Shown: positions 18,878 through 51,023 of the stretch, one piece after another
Layout: each line of letters opens with the position of its first letter
How positions within the stretch are numbered: position 1 is the first letter of the stretch
Assembly (NCBI GenBank): GCA_020850715.1
Contig: JADZED010000080.1
Location: forward strand, 4,524-68,523
Length of the DNA: 64,000 bases
Reading direction: 5' to 3'
Source of the DNA: Acidobacteriota bacterium
Lineage (GTDB): Bacteria > Acidobacteriota > Vicinamibacteria > Vicinamibacterales > CAVVIG01
Notes under the pieces: model-generated
What the model was told of the DNA's origin: nothing
Databases searched by the model: none
The model's input: the letters and a program-made list of their open reading frames with translations, nothing else
Position numbers and translations under genes: made by a program

Positions 18878-18949
18878 GGGATTCAGGAGGTGCGCCAGGC
18901 TCAGGGGGTTCGCCGGGTTCAGGAGATTGGCCGGGTTCAGGAGGTTCGC
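18878..18949. repeat. 4 tandem copies of an 18-bp unit (consensus CGGGTTCAGGAGGTTCGC), degenerate units on both flanks
   Basis: TCAGG anchors at 18883, 18901, 18919, 18937, exactly 18 nt apart. The array lies between convergent genes, and the last unit contains the stop codon of the minus-strand hydrolase. Confidence 0.85.
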
Positions 18950-19986
18950 TGGAGCAGGGCCCGCCGGAGAAAGCGCACGAGAATCCACCCGTCGACGAAC
19001 TTGAACGGCGCCTTGCCCGAGCTGTAGTGGCCGCAGCCGAGCGTGGCGAGTTCGTGCGGGATCGCCGCCTCGCGAAACAGCCGCACCAGCTCCCGCGACA
19101 GATCCACCGGAAAGGTCAGGTCGTAGCGCGCGTACACGAGCAGCGTCTGCCGATCGTGCAGGCGTTCGAGATACCACCGCGGGCTGATCGGCCGCCACAG
19201 GGCGCGCAGTCGATCGAGCTCGATGTGGCCGTCGAGCCCCTCGCGGACGTGACGGGTCGAGATGCCCCGCCACACGACGTCGGCGAAATCGGGCGAGATG
19301 TGGTTCAGCGCCTGCGCGCGGATCAGCGGCTCGTGCGCGGTGGTGAGGAGCGACAGGCAGGAGCCCAGGCTCGTGCCGAGAATGCCGATCCGCTCGAAGC
19401 CCTCGGCGTGCAGCCACGCGATCGCGCGGCGCGCGTCGAGCACCGCCTGCCGGCACACCTGCACCGTGCGGGCGAGGTTGGCGCTGACGATGTAGTCGGC
19501 GCGGTGCAGCTCCGCCGGCATGCGGGCGTCGTGGTACGGCAGGCTGAGGCGCAGCGCGGTCATGCCGTTCCACGCGAGCAGACGGCAGAGGCCGACGTGG
19601 CCGCCCGCATCGGCGTTCCACTGCGGCAGGACGAGCACCGCCGCCCGCCGCCCCCCTGCCGCGGCTTCGCGGGCAGGCACGTACCGGCAATGCACCCTGT
19701 CGTTCTCCGGATGCGGCGTCGCGAACGCGCTCGGAAAGGTGAGCACGCGATCGCCGTCCGGCAACGGCGCGCTCAGCGAGTACTCGGAAATCTGGGGCGG
19801 CGTGAAGAAGGCGTCGGTGTCGGCCATGACGCGCGACACCCAGCCGGCGAGGACGTCGGCCGGCGCCTCGCCGGGTCGGCCGCCGGCCCCGATCCAGTCG
19901 AGGCCCCAGTCGAAAGGGCGCACCACCCGATCCTTGGTGACCGAAGCGAGCTGGCGCTCCCAGGCGTGGAAGATGGCTTGCAGCAT
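18937..19986 (-). CDS. alpha/beta hydrolase
   Basis: Nucleophile elbow GTSLGS. Length and hydrophobic core pattern are typical of the alpha/beta fold. Confidence 0.7.
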   Translation of the reverse strand: MLQAIFHAWERQLASVTKDRVVRPFDWGLDWIGAGGRPGEAPADVLAGWVSRVMADTDAFFTPPQISEYSLSAPLPDGDRVLTFPSAFATPHPENDRVHCRYVPAREAAAGGRRAAVLVLPQWNADAGGHVGLCRLLAWNGMTALRLSLPYHDARMPAELHRADYIVSANLARTVQVCRQAVLDARRAIAWLHAEGFERIGILGTSLGSCLSLLTTAHEPLIRAQALNHISPDFADVVWRGISTRHVREGLDGHIELDRLRALWRPISPRWYLERLHDRQTLLVYARYDLTFPVDLSRELVRLFREAAIPHELATLGCGHYSSGKAPFKFVDGWILVRFLRRALLQRTS

Positions 19987-20005
19987 GTGACTCCCATGGT
20001 ATACT
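19978..20005 (+). promoter_or_regulatory. sigma70-like promoter TTGCAG-16-TATACT driving the asd leader
   Basis: TTGCAG 19978-19983, 16-nt spacer, TATACT 20000-20005. It overlaps the start codon of the divergent hydrolase gene. Confidence 0.5.
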
Positions 20006-20011
20006 CACGAC

Positions 20012-20124
20012 TCCATGGGCTTCGGATTCGATGCGCGAAAGCGTAGCTGGCGAAAGCGGGCCGGCCGCGTCGGATTGCGTGAGCTCGAATACTAGCCGCT
20101 CGAGACCAACCGAGCCATCATGCT
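20012..20124 (+). promoter_or_regulatory. asd-lysC-dap 5' leader: 26-codon mini-ORF (20015-20095) plus antiterminator segment
   Basis: ATG 20015 opens MGFGFDARKRSWRKRAGRVGLRELEY. CCGCGTCGG 20065-20073 duplicates the terminator 3' arm and can pair with the terminator 5' arm. Confidence 0.4.
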
Positions 20125-20163
20125 GCCGACACGGATTCCCCCCGCGTCGGCTTTTTCTTTTTT
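20125..20163 (+). terminator. rho-independent terminator 28 nt upstream of the asd start
   Basis: GCCGACACGG (20125-20134), loop ATTCCCC, CCGCGTCGGC (20142-20151), then TTTTTCTTTTTT (20152-20163). A T-run like this is exceptional in this GC-rich DNA. Confidence 0.7.
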
Positions 20164-20190
20164 GGGGACACGTTCTTTCAGCCAGCGCTC

Positions 20191-21237
20191 ATGTCCACGA
20201 TTCCCGTCGGCATTCTCGGCGCGACCGGCATGGTCGGCCAGCAGTTCATCGCCCTCCTCGCGAATCACCCGTGGTTCCGAGTGGAATGGATCGGCGCCAG
20301 CGAGCGATCCCAGGGCAAGACCTACCGCGAGGCCTGTGCGTGGCGGCTCCCGGCTCCGCTGCCCGACCGCGTCGCGACGATGAAGGTGGAGGCGACCGCT
20401 CCCGGCCTCGCGCCGAAGCTGATGTTCTCCGGCCTCGACTCGTCGGTCGCCACCGACATCGAAGCCGCCTTCGCGCGCGCCGGCCATACCGTCGTCAGCA
20501 ACGCGCGCAACTACCGCATGCACGCCACGGTGCCGCTCCTGATTCCCGAGATCAACGCCGATCATCTCGGGCTGCTGCCGGCGCAGCGCCGGGCGTTGGG
20601 CTGGGAGGGCGCGATCGTCACCAACCCGAACTGCGCCGTCGTCGTGCTCGCGATGGCGCTCGCGCCGCTCCGGCAGTTCGGCCTCGATCTGGCGACGATC
20701 ACCACCATGCAGGCGATTTCCGGCGCCGGCTATCCGGGCGTCCCCTCGTGGGACATCCTCGCGAACGTGATCCCGCACATCGGCGGTGGCGAAGAAGAGA
20801 AGGTCGAGAAGGAAGGCCCGAAGATTCTCGGCGCGCTGCAGGGCGGCGCCGTGATCGATCACCCGTGCCGCATCAGCGCGACGACAACCCGCGTGCCGGT
20901 GCACAACGGCCACACCGGGTCGATTGCCGTGAGCCTGAAGCAGAAGCCGCCGCTCGAGGCGGTCGTCGACGCGTGGCAGTCGTTTCGCGGGCGGCCGCAG
21001 GCGCTCGGCCTGCCGACCTCGCCGCCCCAGCCGGTCGTCCATTTGCCCGAGGTCAACCGCCCCCAGCCGGCGCTCGACGCCGCTCGCGACGGCGGCATGA
21101 CGGTGACCGTCGGGCGGCTGCGCGAGTGCCCGGTGCTCGGCTACAAGTTCGTCGCGCTGGGACACAACACGATCCGCGGCGCGGCCGGCGCCGCGATCCT
21201 CAACGCGGAGCTGATGCGCGAGGAAGGCCTGCTGTGA
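20191..21237 (+). CDS. asd: aspartate-semialdehyde dehydrogenase
   Basis: GATGMVGQ dinucleotide fold, active-site Cys in TNPNCAVV, GHNTIRGAAG near the C-terminus. Confidence 0.92.
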   Translation: MSTIPVGILGATGMVGQQFIALLANHPWFRVEWIGASERSQGKTYREACAWRLPAPLPDRVATMKVEATAPGLAPKLMFSGLDSSVATDIEAAFARAGHTVVSNARNYRMHATVPLLIPEINADHLGLLPAQRRALGWEGAIVTNPNCAVVVLAMALAPLRQFGLDLATITTMQAISGAGYPGVPSWDILANVIPHIGGGEEEKVEKEGPKILGALQGGAVIDHPCRISATTTRVPVHNGHTGSIAVSLKQKPPLEAVVDAWQSFRGRPQALGLPTSPPQPVVHLPEVNRPQPALDAARDGGMTVTVGRLRECPVLGYKFVALGHNTIRGAAGAAILNAELMREEGLL

Positions 21238-21248
21238 GCGGCGTCGTC

Positions 21249-22610
21249 ATGAAGTTCGGCGGCACCTCGGTCGCCGATCCGGAGGCGATCGAACGGGTGG
21301 CCGCGATCGTCCGCCGCCAGATGCAGGCCGGCGGGCCGGCGCCGGTCGTGGTCGTGTCGGCGCTTTCGAAGGTGACCGACCGTCTGATTGCGGCGGCGCG
21401 GGCGGCCGAGACGGGGAGCGGCGACGAGGCGGCCGCGAACCTCGGCGAGCTGCTCGATCGCCATCGTTCTGTCGCGTCGAGCCTGACGTCGGGCGCCCCG
21501 CAGGCGGTCCTGCTCGCGCAGGTGCAGGCGGAGCTCGAGGCGCTCATCGGCCTCGTGCGCGCGCTGGCGGTGCTGCGCGAGGTGTCGCCGCGATCGCTCG
21601 ACGCGGTCGTCGCCGCCGGCGAGCTGATCAGCAGCCGCATCGTGACCGCGGCGCTCGCCGGGCGCGGCATCCCCGCCGCGTGGGTCGATTCGCGCACCGT
21701 CCTCGTCACCGACGCGGAGCACATGGCGGCGGCGCCAGACATGGAGGCGACCTGCACGCGCGTGCGCGAGCGGGTGGCGCCGCTTCGGGCCGCCGGACAG
21801 GTGGCGGTGCTCGGCGGCTTCATCGGCGCGACGGCCAGCGGGATCACGACCACGCTCGGCCGCGGCGGGTCGGATTACTCGGCGGCCATCTTCGGCGCGT
21901 GCCTGGGGGTCGACGAGATCCAGATCTGGACCGACGTCGACGGGATGCTGACCGCCGACCCGCGCGTGGTGCCCCGGCCGCGCCTGGTGCCGCGGCTCAC
22001 CTTCGCGGAAGCCTCCGAGCTGGCCTACTTCGGCGCCAAGGTCCTCCATCCGGCGACGATCCTGCCGGCCGTGGCCAGGAACATCCCTGTCAGGATCCTC
22101 AACTCGCACCAGCCCGGCAACCCGGGCACGACGATCGCCAGCGCTGCCGGCCCGCCGGAAGGGCAGTTCACGGCGCTCGCCTGCAAGCGCGGGTTGACCG
22201 TCATCGACATCACCTCGAGCCGCATGCTGAACGCGTACGGCTTCCTGCGGCGGCTCTTCGAGGTCTTCGAGCGGTTCCGGACGTCGGTCGACGTGGTGAC
22301 GACCTCGGAGATCAGCGTGTCGGTGACCGTCGACGACGCCCGGCAGCTGGACGCGATTGTCGAGAGCCTGCGGCAGTTCGCCGACGTTTCGAGCGAGGGC
22401 GACATGGCGCTCATCTCGGCGGTCGGGGAGAATCTGCACGAGGACCCGACGCTGTTCGGGCGCGCGGTGACCTCGCTCGGGAGGATTCCGATCCGCCTGG
22501 TCTCGCAGGCGGCGTCCCGGCGTAACATCACCTTCGTGCTGCGCGACGCCGACGTGCCGGAGGCGATGACGCGGCTGCACGATCGGTTCTTCGGGGCTGC
22601 CTCATCATGA
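21249..22610 (+). CDS. lysC: aspartate kinase
   Basis: Canonical MKFGGTSV start. An alternative GTG 21234 overlaps the asd stop. Amino-acid kinase domain plus C-terminal ACT-like repeats. Confidence 0.9.
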   Translation: MKFGGTSVADPEAIERVAAIVRRQMQAGGPAPVVVVSALSKVTDRLIAAARAAETGSGDEAAANLGELLDRHRSVASSLTSGAPQAVLLAQVQAELEALIGLVRALAVLREVSPRSLDAVVAAGELISSRIVTAALAGRGIPAAWVDSRTVLVTDAEHMAAAPDMEATCTRVRERVAPLRAAGQVAVLGGFIGATASGITTTLGRGGSDYSAAIFGACLGVDEIQIWTDVDGMLTADPRVVPRPRLVPRLTFAEASELAYFGAKVLHPATILPAVARNIPVRILNSHQPGNPGTTIASAAGPPEGQFTALACKRGLTVIDITSSRMLNAYGFLRRLFEVFERFRTSVDVVTTSEISVSVTVDDARQLDAIVESLRQFADVSSEGDMALISAVGENLHEDPTLFGRAVTSLGRIPIRLVSQAASRRNITFVLRDADVPEAMTRLHDRFFGAASS

Positions 22611-22644
22611 CCAAGACGCTGCGCGCCTTCGCGATCCCCCGGAG

Positions 22645-23343
22645 ATGGTGACGCGAATACTGCTGGTCGGCTACGGCCGGATGGGACGGCTCGTCGAGAG
22701 CCTCGCCGCCGAGTACGGCTGCGAGATCGCCGGGATCGTCGACCCGGCGGCGGGGAGCGACCCCATCGATTCGGATCGCTGGGCCGGTGCCGAGGTGGCG
22801 ATCGACTTCTCGACCGCCGACGCGGTGCCCGGCAACGTGGAGGCGCTCGCCCGCCGCGGCATCGACGTCGTCATCGGCACGACCGGCTGGGACGGGCGGC
22901 GCGCGGACGTCCGGCAGCGCGCCGCCGACGCCGGCATCGGCGTCGTCGCGGCGCCGAACTTCTCGACCGGCGTCGTGCTGTTCGAAGCGATGGTGGCGCA
23001 CGCGTCGGCCCTGGTGGCCGGGCAGCCGGAGTTCGGCGCCTTCGTCCACGAGGCGCACCATCGCGCCAAGAAGGATGCGCCGTCGGGCACGGCCCTCATG
23101 CTGGAGCGTGCGATGCGCGCGGCCGGCTACAATCGCGAGATCGACATGGCCTCGACGCGGGCCGGCTCGATCCCCGGCGTGCACACGGTCGGCTTCGACG
23201 GCCCGGCCGAGACGATTACGCTGACGCACGCCGCGCGCGACCGGAGCGCGTTCGCGCGCGGCGCCCTTGCGGCGGCACAATGGGTGAAGGGGCGGCGCGG
23301 CTGGTTCTCGATGCAGGACGTGCTGGGGTTGAACCAGGCCTGA
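22645..23343 (+). CDS. dapB: 4-hydroxy-tetrahydrodipicolinate reductase
   Basis: GYGRMG NAD(P)-binding start. EAHHRAKKDAPSGTA signature. Confidence 0.9.
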   Translation: MVTRILLVGYGRMGRLVESLAAEYGCEIAGIVDPAAGSDPIDSDRWAGAEVAIDFSTADAVPGNVEALARRGIDVVIGTTGWDGRRADVRQRAADAGIGVVAAPNFSTGVVLFEAMVAHASALVAGQPEFGAFVHEAHHRAKKDAPSGTALMLERAMRAAGYNREIDMASTRAGSIPGVHTVGFDGPAETITLTHAARDRSAFARGALAAAQWVKGRRGWFSMQDVLGLNQA

Positions 23344-23368
23344 GGGCCGCACGGACGAGGCACTGTTT

Positions 23369-24271
23369 ATGCGAACACCCTGGACAGGAGTCGGCACGGC
23401 GCTGGTCACGCCGTTCACGCGCGGCGGCGCGCTCGACGAGGCGGCGGTGCGCCGCCTGGGCCGCCGTCAGATCGACGGCGGCGTGCACTTCCTCGTACCC
23501 TGCGGGACGACGGGCGAGAACCCGACGCTCTCGCTCGCCGAACGGCTGCGGATCGTCGAGATCCTCGTCGAAGAGGCGAACGGCCGGACGCCAATCCTGG
23601 CGGGCGCCGGCGGCTACGACACCCGCGAGGTCATCCAGCTTGCACACGAGATGGAACGCGCCGGCGCGACGGGGCTCCTCTCGGTCACGCCCTATTACAA
23701 CAAGCCGACCCCCGACGGGCTCTACGCCCATTACCGCGCGATCGCCGAGAGCACGCCGCTGCCGATCATCGTCTACAACGTGCCCGGCCGCACCGGCGTG
23801 AACGTCGACGTGGCCACGCTCGTCCGGCTCGCCGGCGTGACCAATATCATCGGCGTGAAGGAAGCGTCGGGCAACGTGCCGCAGATGTGCGAGATCTGCC
23901 GCGAGGTGCCCGCCGACTTCATCGTGCTGTCGGGCGACGATGCGCTGACGCTGCCGTGCATGGCGGTGGGCGGGCGCGGCGTGGTGTCGGTGGCGTCCAA
24001 CGAGATTCCGGCCGAGATGGCGCAGATGGTCGAAGCCGCGGAGCGCAACGACTTCGCCGCCGCTCGGGCCGTGCACGCGCGGATCATGCCGCTGATGCAG
24101 GTGAACTTCATCGAGTCGAACCCTGTGCCGGTGAAGGCCGCGATGGCGGCGATGGGCCTGCTCGAAGAGGTCTATCGACTCCCCATCGTCGGGCCGCGGC
24201 CCGAGTCGCGCGGGAAGATCCTGCGCGTGCTGGCCGACCTCGAGCTGATCGACAAGCCCGCGTTCGCCTGA
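23369..24271 (+). CDS. dapA: 4-hydroxy-tetrahydrodipicolinate synthase
   Basis: GTTGE motif (PCGTTGENPTLS). Schiff-base Lys context IIGVKEASG. About 300 aa. Confidence 0.92.
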   Translation: MRTPWTGVGTALVTPFTRGGALDEAAVRRLGRRQIDGGVHFLVPCGTTGENPTLSLAERLRIVEILVEEANGRTPILAGAGGYDTREVIQLAHEMERAGATGLLSVTPYYNKPTPDGLYAHYRAIAESTPLPIIVYNVPGRTGVNVDVATLVRLAGVTNIIGVKEASGNVPQMCEICREVPADFIVLSGDDALTLPCMAVGGRGVVSVASNEIPAEMAQMVEAAERNDFAAARAVHARIMPLMQVNFIESNPVPVKAAMAAMGLLEEVYRLPIVGPRPESRGKILRVLADLELIDKPAFA

Positions 24272-24332
24272 GCCGCACGGGCCGCGGCGCAGGCGGATTC
24301 GCCGCGGCGCCGCCCGCCGCCAGGACCCCCTT

Positions 24333-25172
24333 ATGCTCCAGACCGAGATCGAAGCCTTCGTGGCCGCCGGGGCCGGCGCGGATCGGGAGGCCGTGCGCAC
24401 GGCCTTTGCGAAGCTGCGCGACGCGCTCTCGTCGGGCGAGGTGCGGGCGGCCGAGCCGGATGCGCGGAGCGCCACCGGCTGGCGGGTGAACACCTGGGTG
24501 AAGCAGGGCATCCTGCTCGGCTTCCGGTTCGGCGAGACGGTCGACGCGTCGATGGACCATGCCAGGTGGCCCTTCTACGACAAGGACACGCTCCCGCTCC
24601 GTCGGCCGGGGCTCGCCGCGGGCGTGCGCATCGTGCCCGGCGGATCGACCGTGCGGGACGGCGCGTATCTGGCGCCGGGCGTCATCTGCATGCCGCCGAT
24701 GTACGTGAACATCGGCGCATGGATCGGCGAACAGTCGCTGATCGATTCGCATGCCCTCGTGGGGTCGTGCGCCCAGATCGGCGCGCGCGTGCACGTCAGC
24801 GCGGGCGCCCAGATCGGCGGGGTGATCGAACCGATCGGTGCGCTTCCGGTCATCGTCGAGGACGAGGCGCTGGTGGGCGGCAACACGGGAATCTACGAAG
24901 GCGCCGTCATCAAGCGGCGCGCCGTCGTGGGCGCCGGAACCGTGCTGACCGGGTCGACGCCGGTGTACGACCTCGTGCGCGGAGAGATCATCAGGCCCTC
25001 CGATGCGCGGCCGCTCGTCGTGCCCGAAGGGGCCGTCGTGGTGCCGGGCGCGCGCGCGGTCGCCGGCGGCCGCGGCCCCGAGTGGGGCCTCTCGCTGGCG
25101 ACCCCGGTGATCGTCAAGTACCGCGACTCGCGCACCGACACGCGCACCGAACTGGAACAGTGGATCCGGTGA
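24333..25172 (+). CDS. dapD: tetrahydrodipicolinate N-succinyltransferase
   Basis: DapD-type N-terminal helical domain (GWRVNTWVKQGILLGFR) followed by left-handed beta-helix hexapeptide repeats. Confidence 0.85.
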   Translation: MLQTEIEAFVAAGAGADREAVRTAFAKLRDALSSGEVRAAEPDARSATGWRVNTWVKQGILLGFRFGETVDASMDHARWPFYDKDTLPLRRPGLAAGVRIVPGGSTVRDGAYLAPGVICMPPMYVNIGAWIGEQSLIDSHALVGSCAQIGARVHVSAGAQIGGVIEPIGALPVIVEDEALVGGNTGIYEGAVIKRRAVVGAGTVLTGSTPVYDLVRGEIIRPSDARPLVVPEGAVVVPGARAVAGGRGPEWGLSLATPVIVKYRDSRTDTRTELEQWIR

Positions 25173-26200
25173 TCTCCCCCGCCGCGGTCGATCCCGTCGC
25201 GCTGGCGCGCGCGCTGGTGGATATCGATTCCACCACCGGCCGCGAGGGCGACGCGGGTCGCTGGCTGGCCGCCTACCTGCGCGACCGCGGTTACCAGGTC
25301 GTGGAGCAGCGGGTGGACGCATCCCGGTTCAACATCATCGCGCGGGCGGGCGATCCGGCCGTCGTGTTCTCGACCCACATGGACTGCGTGCCGCCGTTCT
25401 TTGCCAGCCGCATCGAGGGCGACCGGCTGTATGGACGCGGCGCGTGCGACGCGAAGGGCATCCTGGCCGCGCAGGTGGCGGCAGCCGAACGGCTGCGGCA
25501 GGGCGGCGAGACGCGGGTGGGGCTGCTGTTCGTCGTCGGCGAGGAACGGGGCAGCGACGGCGCCCGCGCGGCCGATGCGGTGGCGCCGGGGTCGCGATAC
25601 CTCGTGAACGGCGAGCCGACCGACAACCGGCTGGGGCGCGCGACCCGCGGCGTGCTGCGCCTGAAGCTGCGCGCGTCGGGCCGCGCGGCGCATTCGTCCT
25701 ATCCCGAGCTGGGCGAATCGGCGATCGACGCCCTCATCGACGCGCTGGTCGAACTGCGCGGCATCGCGCTGCCGGCCGACGCGCTGCTCGGGCGCACGCA
25801 CTACAGCGTGGGGCTGATCTCGGGCGGGGTGGCCCCCAACGTGATTTCGCCCGCCGCCGAAGCCGAGGTGATGTTCCGGACAGTCGGCGACGGATCGGCG
25901 GTGCGCCGGGCGGTGGCGCCGCTCGAGCGGCGCGTCGCCGTGGAGCATGTGCTCGAGGTGCCGCCGGTGCGGATGACGCCGCTCGATGGCTTCGAGACCG
26001 CGGTGTTCCCCTACACGACCGACATCCCGTTCCTCTCCGCCTGGGGGCGGCCGCTGCTGTTCGGCCCTGGATCGATTCACGTGGCTCACACGGCCGACGA
26101 GTTCGTCTCGATCCCGGAGCTGCACGAGGCGGTCGATCGCTATGCGGCGATCGCGAAGGCCCTGTTGTCGCGGACCGGCGATCCTGCGCCGAGCGCCTGA
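25169..26200 (+). CDS. M20-family metallohydrolase, probably succinyl-diaminopimelate desuccinylase (ArgE/DapE family)
   Basis: GTGA overlap with dapD. Metal-ligand contexts FSTHMDCV, GRGACDAKG, VGEERGSDG. The DapE versus ArgE assignment rests on context only. Confidence 0.7.
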   Translation: MISPAAVDPVALARALVDIDSTTGREGDAGRWLAAYLRDRGYQVVEQRVDASRFNIIARAGDPAVVFSTHMDCVPPFFASRIEGDRLYGRGACDAKGILAAQVAAAERLRQGGETRVGLLFVVGEERGSDGARAADAVAPGSRYLVNGEPTDNRLGRATRGVLRLKLRASGRAAHSSYPELGESAIDALIDALVELRGIALPADALLGRTHYSVGLISGGVAPNVISPAAEAEVMFRTVGDGSAVRRAVAPLERRVAVEHVLEVPPVRMTPLDGFETAVFPYTTDIPFLSAWGRPLLFGPGSIHVAHTADEFVSIPELHEAVDRYAAIAKALLSRTGDPAPSA

Positions 26201-31804: not shown

Positions 31805-32311
31805 CTACTTCTCCAGCAGCGCCTTCATCGATGCGAGCGCCCGCTCCCACCCGTGGGCAATGACCTCGTAGTACCGCCGCCAGCGCTCGCCTTCCTCGAA
31901 ACCCGTTTGCCGCACGCGTACCTGGGTGGCGCCATCGTCCGACGAGGTGCACTGCACGGCGAGCGCCATCGGGCCGATCGGGTCGCCGTCGGGCGGGAGC
32001 CAGTAGGCATCGGCGACGAAGAAGCCGGCACCCGCGTCGAATTCCATGACCGTGCCGCGGAAGACGCCGCCCAGGCGGCCCAGCATCTCGTCGCGGAAGT
32101 CGGTCGGCGCCCACTCGATGGCGTACGGCCCCAGCGCCCGCGGCGTGGTCACCGAGTGCGCGGCCTGCCACCAGGCGCCCAGCGCGTCGGCCTCGAAAAA
32201 GGCGCGGAGGACCGTGCCGGCGGGAGCCTGAATGGTGGCACGGACGTCGAGGCTTGGCGCGCTGCCCATGAGCGGCGCGATCATACCGAATGTTGCTAGA
32301 GTGACAAACAT
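31805..32311 (-). CDS. SRPBCC/AHSA1-like domain protein
   Basis: About 150-aa START-like pattern (VRATIQAPAGTVLRAFFEADALGAWW ... GWERALASMKALLE). Confidence 0.65.
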   Translation of the reverse strand: MFVTLATFGMIAPLMGSAPSLDVRATIQAPAGTVLRAFFEADALGAWWQAAHSVTTPRALGPYAIEWAPTDFRDEMLGRLGGVFRGTVMEFDAGAGFFVADAYWLPPDGDPIGPMALAVQCTSSDDGATQVRVRQTGFEEGERWRRYYEVIAHGWERALASMKALLEK

Positions 32312-50885: not shown

Positions 50886-51023
50886 GCCGTCCTCCACGGC
50901 GCGCGGAGCCCGCGCGCCAATCCTGCTGACAGAGCCGAAGGGGTGGGGCGAAAGCATATCACCGGCAATCGGACGCGAAAAAGCACGGCACGGGCGGAGG
51001 CCGCGGCGCGTAAATCCCGCATA

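Follow-up and report, generated by a model that had tools for sequence, protein, structure and literature searches.

A putative lysine-codon leader attenuator upstream of the asd-lysC-dapB-dapA-dapD operon in Vicinamibacteria

Introduction

Vicinamibacteria are abundant soil Acidobacteriota that have hardly been cultured and that have almost no regulatory annotation. Here, we describe a 64,000-nucleotide stretch from one such organism (Acidobacteriota bacterium, assembly GCA_020850715.1, contig JADZED010000080.1, positions 4,524 to 68,523), referred to throughout as the window, in which six lysine and aspartate-family biosynthesis genes, beginning with asd and lysC, lie on the plus strand behind a leader of ~150 nt. 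The leader contains a predicted promoter, a mini-open reading frame (mini-ORF) with in-frame Lys codons, and an intrinsic terminator directly before asd. We compare it with the leaders of related loci and propose that it is probably a transcription attenuator responding to the supply of Lys-tRNA.

Lysine biosynthesis genes are usually described as being under the control of the L-box riboswitch or of protein regulators. The L-box (RF00168) is a five-helix, ligand-binding aptamer of ~180 nt that contains no ORF and, in many bacteria, precedes asd, lysC and dap genes. To our knowledge, lysine leader-peptide attenuation is documented only for the alpha-aminoadipate (AAA) pathway cluster of Thermus, and our search of the literature found no account of a Lys leader peptide in Acidobacteria or before any asd, lysC or dap gene. 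The locus was picked out in an earlier annotation made from the letters of the window (the sequence-only reading), which proposed a promoter, a mini-ORF, an antiterminator strand and a terminator, and left two options for their function: a Lys-codon, ribosome-mediated attenuator, regarded there as weak, or a new type of leader that responds to a ligand or protein.

Materials and Methods

The asd loci compared were 80 genomic and 80 metagenomic, and the leader layout described below is present in 45 of these. Counts of leader ORFs, codons, spacings and ribosome-mask folding refer to 44 leaders, and those of helix pairing, alignment gaps and covariation to an alignment of 32 leaders, from which the covariance model R1 was also built. 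Controls for pairing were the same helices with the register slid, and 500 shuffles. In folding, the ribosome was represented as a mask extending from -15 to +12 nt relative to the A-site codon. All folding is equilibrium folding, not kinetic; transcripts cut just before segment 4 of the leader roughly approximate the kinetic situation in which the choice between folds is made, and were used because full-length equilibrium folding is clear for the window and mixed across the homologues. Individual loci are given L numbers where they have to be told apart.

Results

Organization of the leader and operon

The features of the leader, followed by the neighbouring genes, are:

19978-19983, plus strand: -35-like hexamer TTGCAG, matching the consensus at 3/6 positions, with a 16-nt spacer to the -10 box
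19997-20005, plus strand: extended -10 element TGgTATACT of the predicted promoter (TG 19997-19998, TATACT 20000-20005)
20015-20095, plus strand: leader mini-ORF MGFGFDARKRSWRKRAGRVGLRELEY, 26 codons, stop codon TAG at 20093-20095, no Shine-Dalgarno (SD) sequence
20025-20035, plus strand: segment 1 GATTCGATGCG, the anti-antiterminator strand, pairing with segment 2
20036-20041, plus strand: first regulatory codon pair CGA-AAG (Arg-Lys), where stalling is proposed mainly to occur
20051-20059, plus strand: second regulatory codons CGA-AAG-CGG (Arg-Lys-Arg); most leaders have an Arg codon directly behind the last Lys
20065-20076, plus strand: segment 2 CCGCGTCGGATT, within the ORF, with segment 1 or segment 3 (antiterminator) as alternative partners
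20083-20115, plus strand: hairpin B, GCTCGA (20083-88) with CCGAGC (20110-15), 90.1% paired
20125-20151, plus strand: terminator hairpin, segment 3 (20125-34) with segment 4 (20142-51), one A.C mismatch
20152-20163, plus strand: U-tract TTTTTCTTTTTT (T5CT6), ending 27 nt 5' of the asd ATG at 20191
20191-21237, plus strand: asd, archaeal-type (NCBIfam)
~21243-22610, plus strand: lysC, lysine-sensitive aspartokinase (NCBIfam)
22645-23343, plus strand: dapB (NCBIfam)
23369-24271, plus strand: dapA (NCBIfam)
24333-25172, plus strand: dapD (NCBIfam)
end at 26200, plus strand: gene of an ArgE/DapE-family M20 deacylase (NCBIfam), closing the operon (20191-26200)
18937-19986, minus strand: RcgR-like hydrolase gene, the divergent neighbour upstream

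The sequence-only reading had named six genes of the lysine/aspartate family downstream of the leader, and the NCBIfam assignments agree with it. It also took the arrangement for that of an attenuation switch, and the same layout recurs directly 5' of asd in 45 related loci. These are acidobacterial and come mostly from Vicinamibacteria, the class in which the asd protein places the window, with its best genomic relatives being 70-75% identical. Shared by these leaders are a -10 box resembling TATACT, an SD-less start codon 6-10 nt downstream of it, an ORF of 19-32 codons with 1-4 in-frame Lys codons, and a terminator; when the asd upstream regions of relatives are aligned, the leader elements are conserved and covariation is present. 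The leaders form four subfamilies whose sequences are almost wholly different outside the Lys-Arg codons. The consensus peptide of subfamily A, to which the window belongs, is M.FTSDTRKR..RKRA.RVGGVVLER, that of subfamily B begins MTCTTPKSICRKRVKRFD..., and that of subfamily C is MTRKRMPKRAKCGAEGIRL; subfamily D consists of L011 and L014.

The order asd-lysC-dapB-dapA is kept in relatives, and the leader goes with asd itself: it is retained in subfamilies B, C and D, which lack the hydrolase gene upstream, and in L001, L100 and L103, which have no lysC downstream. The R1 model finds exactly one full-length, forward-strand copy per locus, always before asd, and elsewhere in the window or the loci it finds none but short reverse-strand matches to the palindromic terminator hairpin.

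No catalogued RNA family accounts for the element. A search of the whole window with Rfam 15 at gathering thresholds gave zero matches, not even a tRNA, and at E<=10 the region 19900-20260 gave no L-box (RF00168), T-box or amino-acid leader (Thr, His, Trp, Leu, Phe and others). The only sub-threshold matches, Hrs10 (21 bits, threshold 108) and ncS54 (14 bits, threshold 43), both fall on the terminator hairpin. The absence of L-box hallmarks noted in the sequence-only reading is thus borne out in the window and in the leader region, with no confident assignment of the latter to any known family.

Promoter and mini-ORF

TTGCAG and TATACT, separated by 16 nt at 19978-20005, are present as originally described, and the TG before the latter adds an extended -10 element. 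TATACT or a near variant occurs in almost all leaders, and a preceding TGn in most of subfamily A. The -35-like hexamer overlaps the start of the divergent hydrolase gene (start codon 19984-19986, minus strand) and is kept only in loci where that gene is the neighbour, and its conservation may stem from hydrolase coding. Simple consensus scanners missed both the promoter, with a 3/6 match at -35, and the terminator, with its stem mismatch, and lend no added support. In L084 (~1240-1300), the TATACT promoter region is replaced by direct GCGGTCTTGAAGAAC repeats; the ORF, helices and terminator of this locus are intact.

The mini-ORF is found as the sequence-only reading had it, with ATG 20015 placed 9 nt past the -10 box, no SD, 26 codons, a stop at 20093-20095 and a central Arg-Lys-Arg duplication; CGAAAGCG is present twice within it (20036-20043 and 20051-20058). 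Of the 44 leaders, 27 have their start exactly 9 nt from the -10 box, and 32 have it at 8-10 nt. In subfamilies B and C, a GTG in the reading frame lies 7-8 nt from the -10 box, and in five leaders of subfamily A the spacing is instead 30-50 nt. A spacing of 9 nt implies that the mRNA of the mini-ORF would be leaderless or have a 5' untranslated region of ~0-4 nt.

Among 111 AAG triplets in the 44 leader ORFs, 98 are in frame, and Lys makes up 7.7% of the window mini-ORF (two codons) compared with 1.6% of the operon proteins. The codon following the last Lys is an Arg CGN codon in 39 leaders, and CGG, CGC, CGT and CGA are all used, so that the variation is synonymous. Gap blocks within the ORF are 6, 9, 3, 6, 6, 9, 3 and 2 nt long, and seven of the eight are multiples of three; the probability of at least seven is ~0.003 under a one-in-three null, and the lone 2-nt block belongs to L087, whose peptide does change frame. 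Gaps 3' of the stop codon are of arbitrary length, with 7/16 being multiples of three. What appears to be conserved is the frame, the start and the Lys codons, not a protein, as expected for a leader peptide, and five representative leader peptides match no family in Pfam or NCBIfam at E<=1.

Terminator and mutually exclusive helices

The terminator arms are GCCGACACGG (20125-20134) and CCGCGTCGGC (20142-20151), with a predicted energy of -16.5 kcal/mol. The sequence-only reading located this hairpin and its T-run correctly (20125-20163) and put the distance to the asd ATG at 28 nt, one more than is found. T-runs of 5-10 occur in almost all homologues, with just four in the subfamily-C leaders L115 and L116. 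The end of the terminator lies a median of 25 nt from asd (minimum 4 nt, and <=40 nt in 34/44 leaders), so near that there is no room for a second promoter, and, to judge from this lack of space, the operon would have to be transcribed through the terminator; because the upstream gene is divergent, the terminator cannot belong to an upstream plus-strand gene. It is the sole strong hairpin with a T-run on either strand of the window, and this, together with the recurrence of the layout in related loci, speaks against a coincidental arrangement. Weaker candidates are present at 32196-32240 and 50978-51022, both on the minus strand, and canonical intrinsic terminators seem to be rare in this 70% G+C genome.

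Within the mini-ORF, CCGCGTCGG (20065-20073) is an exact copy of 20142-20150 in the terminator 3' arm, a duplication from which an antiterminator had been proposed, and the resulting 2:3 helix, exclusive of the terminator, is conserved: 90.6% of its positions are paired in the 32 sequences, compared with 28-38% when the register is slid. Two parts of the predicted switch were absent from the sequence-only reading, namely segment 1 (20025-20035) and the stop-codon hairpin B. The helix between segments 1 and 2 is 86.6% paired, with five pairs changed on both sides and a duplex energy of -14.3 kcal/mol, and only 3 nt separate the end of segment 1 from the first Lys codon, which places this segment within the footprint of a ribosome stalled there. 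Hairpin B surrounds the stop codon, is nested within the antiterminator, and has three pairs changed on both sides; the terminator helix is 87.8% paired.

Taken as complete structures, the predicted OFF state (1:2, hairpin B and 3:4) has 87.8% of cells paired, compared with 31-43% for slid registers, and the predicted ON state (2:3 and hairpin B) has 90.4%, compared with 28-38%. Twelve OFF-state pairs are changed on both sides, and none of the 500 shuffles reaches the observed values. RNAalifold, unaided, predicts the 1:2 helix, hairpin B and the terminator. At one position, all three strands covary (segment 1 A/G, segment 2 U/C, segment 3 A/G), and the antiterminator pair at columns 100/193 is UA in 19 sequences, CG in six and UG in one. 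The A.C mismatch recurs in 24 of 32 terminators at a position that is usually paired in the antiterminator, and it should help the antiterminator to compete. The energy of the whole leader is ordinary (z = -0.28).

The placement of these helices is maintained even where their sequences are not. Whichever of the four subfamilies is considered, the ORF contains the best complement of the terminator 5' arm, located 7-13 nt past the first nucleotide of the last Lys-Arg codon pair, and in divergent subfamilies the best upstream partner of segment 2 ends at, or overlaps, the Lys codons. We consider this positional conservation, despite wholly different helix sequences, to be a stronger argument for the predicted switch than the counts of pairs. 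The sequence parts and their conservation, the mutual exclusivity of the helices and the lack of space for a second promoter are all results of computation. A pair of GNRA mini-hairpins that the sequence-only reading saw in the Arg-Lys-Arg duplication finds no independent support: the first is 94% paired, shows no covariation and overlaps segment 1, and the second is only 64% paired.

A model for attenuation

We propose that the element is probably a four-segment transcription attenuator of the trp/his type, mediated by the ribosome, that reads Lys-tRNA supply and controls the asd-lysC-dapB-dapA-dapD-(dapE-like) operon. Transcription would begin a few nucleotides past TGgTATACT, and the 26-codon ORF would be translated without an SD, from a leaderless or nearly leaderless transcript. 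When Lys-tRNA is plentiful, the ribosome would proceed to the stop codon at 20093, and segments 1 (20025-35) and 2 (20065-76) would pair behind it, freeing segment 3 so that the terminator (20125-51 and the U-tract) could fold and transcription would stop 27 nt before asd. When Lys-tRNA is scarce, the ribosome would stall with the first AAG (20039-41) in the A site, covering segment 1 and leaving segment 2 exposed; segment 2 would then pair with segment 3, with hairpin B nested between them, and with the terminator blocked RNA polymerase would enter the operon. In this model, we infer where transcription starts, that the ORF is translated and the ribosome stalls, and in which direction and how specifically to lysine the operon responds.

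For the window, folding under a ribosome mask gives the terminator a probability of 0.99 in the absence of a ribosome and of 1.0 when the ribosome has reached the stop codon, but of 0.03 when the first Lys codon occupies the A site; when the two states are forced, the terminator and antiterminator states have energies of -60.3 and -55.8 kcal/mol, a difference of 4.5 kcal/mol. Among truncated transcripts of the 44 leaders, the antiterminator is predicted in 41 with a ribosome at the first Lys codon, in 27 with one at the last Lys codon, in 18 with one at the stop codon, and in 33 with no ribosome. The first Lys codon is the stall site at which the model works best in these calculations. Of the two options left by the sequence-only reading, we favour the Lys-codon attenuator, which it had called weak, because the Lys codons are in frame in four subfamilies, the ORF indels are multiples of three, and the helices are placed as described; a leader of a new type that responds to a ligand or protein is less probable and is not needed.

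Several observations weigh against this model. Across the full-length leaders at equilibrium, only 15/44 flip to the antiterminator with a ribosome at the first Lys codon, and the terminator is favoured in 29. The antiterminator is already favoured in the 33 ribosome-free truncated transcripts, and termination in the absence of translation therefore depends on the 1:2 helix folding first, not on energy. A ribosome at the last Lys codon would cover the 5' end of segment 2, and the window terminator probability there is 1.0. The mini-ORF has no SD, the transcription start is predicted from the -10 box, and the start position is TTG in L001 and GTG in L095. An open frame of this length is unsurprising in DNA of 60-70% G+C, and column variability is flat over codon positions (0.89, 0.90 and 0.96 bits), with no positive sign of selection on the peptide. 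Lys codons are few, with two in the window and a single one in L076, L085 and L099, and both CGA before Lys and CGG after it are kept beyond the need of a pure hungry-codon model. Finally, the aligned leaders are kin, so that the shuffle and Wilcoxon figures overstate significance.

Alternative explanations

The codon context of the Lys residues invites a more elaborate reading. CGA lies directly 5' of a Lys codon in 55 of 105 cases in the 44 leaders (20036-20038 and 20051-20053 in the window), and it makes up 4.7% of the Arg codons in the operon genes. CGA is read by I.A wobble, and in yeast it impairs decoding of the following codon. The CGA-AAG pair could sharpen sensitivity to Lys-tRNA. 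That the invariant core (CGA-AAG-CGN ... AAG-CGN, encoding Arg-Lys-Arg ... Lys-Arg) is a dedicated sensing module, in which CGA in the P site weakens decoding of the next Lys codon, or in which a ligand or trans-acting factor is bound by the nascent R-K-R peptide or by the CGAAAGCG repeats, is in our estimate rather unlikely.

The same bias would suit a riboswitch or protein-binding leader with an incidental ORF, in which the conserved loop between segments 1 and 2, with its CGAAAGCG and AAGCGG repeats, binds lysine, diaminopimelate (DAP) or a trans-acting RNA-binding protein and thereby decides between the 1:2 and 2:3 helices. Such a leader could explain why CGAAAGCGG is kept beyond the demands of codon identity, why a rare CGA is retained at just over half of the positions before Lys, and why the third codon position is no more variable than the first and second; a factor stabilizing the 1:2 helix would also be useful where ribosome-free truncated transcripts favour 2:3. 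However, the AAG frame and the indels in multiples of three hold across subfamilies that share almost nothing else, and the spacing of start codon and -10 box is fixed. At ~28 nt, the loop would make a small amino-acid aptamer; its length differs by 6-18 nt, neither conserved pairing nor covariation is seen inside it, and there is no Rfam family match. We regard this explanation as very unlikely. Jointly, it, the explanations that follow, and a sensing module in which the motif acts as a binding site or arrest sequence, are less improbable than any one singly, and still unlikely.

Known arrest peptides rely on longer contacts with the tunnel. A basic nascent peptide (R-K-R ... K-R) that stalls on free lysine or another metabolite, in the manner of TnaC or SpeFL, or that acts as an intrinsically slow +X+ motif, in place of a response to uncharged tRNA-Lys, would account for the presence of Arg-Lys-Arg in all subfamilies and for Arg after the last Lys in nearly all leaders despite synonymous changes, and R/K-X-R/K motifs are described as difficult for the macrolide-bound peptidyl-transferase centre (PMC12583479). 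The remaining peptide is not conserved between subfamilies, though, and a stall at high lysine would here lead to read-through, the wrong direction for a biosynthetic operon; hungry-codon reading already accounts for the geometry, and arrest is highly improbable as an explanation.

Equally improbable is a stand-alone small gene, encoding a basic micro-protein or a small RNA with its own promoter and terminator and leaving the operon to leak-through or another promoter, for although a terminated 150-nt RNA could persist and act in trans, like rnTrpL of Sinorhizobium meliloti (PMC10117765), the terminator lies 4-40 nt before asd in 34/44 loci with no promoter space, the element goes with asd when its neighbours change, the peptide lacks any Pfam or NCBIfam match, and an ORF strand competing for the terminator 5' arm would be purposeless in a plain terminator. 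The attenuator thus remains the reading that we prefer.

Other features of acidobacterial asd loci

In many relatives, the spacer between terminator and asd is filled with tandem-like CACGAAG or GGACACGAAG repeats, and these repeats often end in ...GGACACGAAGATG at the asd start codon. Examples are present in L085 (1431-1495), L103 (1256-1322), L102 (144-269), L091 (1102-1148) and L089 (203-223). The GACACGAAG repeat of relatives is not enriched in the window, with 18 matches compared with 16.9 expected. The spacer repeat may be an element of the initiation region or a mobile short repeat.

One locus carrying a subfamily-C leader, L016 (JAIEMQ010000022.1), is binned as 'Cyanobacteriota bacterium'; it has an acidobacterial-type asd-lysC-dapB arrangement, with an asd 60% identical to that of the window, and the contig is probably mis-binned.

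A second clade of Vicinamibacterales (L007-L010, L012, L013, L029, L111 and L134) has asd genes 61-65% identical to that of the window and no Lys leader. In this clade, the gene directly 5' of asd encodes a different aspartokinase, one with an ACT domain and 29-37% identity to the window lysC, and no L-box is present in the seven loci scanned (L007-L010, L012, L013 and L029). The ask-asd arrangement of this clade looks like a differently regulated pair.

Among 20 related loci without the leader, an Rfam search for the L-box found none, and returned only a SAM riboswitch (L025) and a group II intron (L015). The SAM riboswitch, in another acidobacterial lineage, lies at 58-157 of L025 (73.5 bits), ~2.3 kb upstream of asd, and the gene directly 5' of that asd has a C-terminal sequence that resembles, as judged by eye, a Cys/Met-metabolism PLP enzyme; asd may therefore be under different amino-acid-sensing leaders in different lineages. 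Two distant Acidobacteriota metagenome-assembled genomes have unrelated Lys-rich small ORFs 5' of asd: in L063 (2275-2455), an ORF ending ...SKTKHKLIRQ* is followed by a hairpin and TTTTCTTTTT, and in L046 (~2178-2265) the ORF encodes MHKRSTKSKSKIATFDFRCLW*. In both, a Lys-codon leader may have arisen independently.

Discussion

If the model is correct, this is the first leader-peptide attenuator for the DAP pathway (asd, lysC, dapBAD), and it would be among the first cis-regulatory RNA families to be defined in Vicinamibacteria. It would also be a compact, natural lysine-responsive part of ~150 nt, and the position of its start codon suggests that SD-less, near-leaderless translation takes place in Acidobacteriota. 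The covariance model of this unannotated family can now be used by annotators. The CGA-AAG codon-pair bias hints at how two codons can suffice for sensing, and if the leader did contain a dedicated sensing module, this would be a lysine-sensing principle undescribed for bacterial attenuators.

The leader shares its niche with the L-box, both being 5' leaders with a terminator/antiterminator switch before lysine-pathway genes, and differs from it in having an ORF and in giving no match to RF00168. Closer in function is the leader of the lysine (alpha-aminoadipate) cluster of Thermus thermophilus, reportedly shown by Tsubouchi et al. in 2005 in J Biol Chem to act by leader-peptide attenuation with tandem Lys codons. 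Both that system and the leader described here have a short, Lys-containing peptide before lysine genes and would be lysine-specific and ribosome-mediated; they differ in pathway (DAP and asd-lysC rather than AAA), in phylum, and in the Lys codons, which are separated here and reportedly tandem in Thermus. One published suggestion does place a Lys-codon leader peptide before an aspartate-family gene, although Thr codons dominate there, and both the gene and the clade are different.

A small, leaderless attenuator mRNA is known from trpL/rnTrpL of S. meliloti, whose leaderless status has been shown experimentally (PMC10117765). The leader described here would resemble it in having an ORF that starts at or near the 5' end of the transcript, as predicted here from the sequence, and is unlike it in that the S. 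meliloti system senses Trp, belongs to the Alphaproteobacteria, and is unrelated in sequence.

In its overall design, the leader most resembles the classical trp, his, thr, leu and phe leader-peptide attenuators of Escherichia coli and Salmonella, reportedly set out by Yanofsky in 1981 (Nature 289:751; reference 26 of PMC4117421). Common to both are a short ORF with codons for the end product, segments that can pair as 1:2, 2:3 and 3:4, a terminator before the first structural gene, and a fold that is selected, in our model, by the position of the ribosome. The acidobacterial leader has no sequence or Rfam kinship with these, and would read Lys instead of Trp, His, Thr, Leu or Phe. It lacks an SD and starts ~9 nt from the -10 box, its stop codon lies far past segment 2 inside an extra hairpin, and its Lys codons stand among Arg codons instead of in tandem, with the rare CGA on their 5' side. 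The sequence family is uncatalogued, and the proposed mechanism itself is classical.

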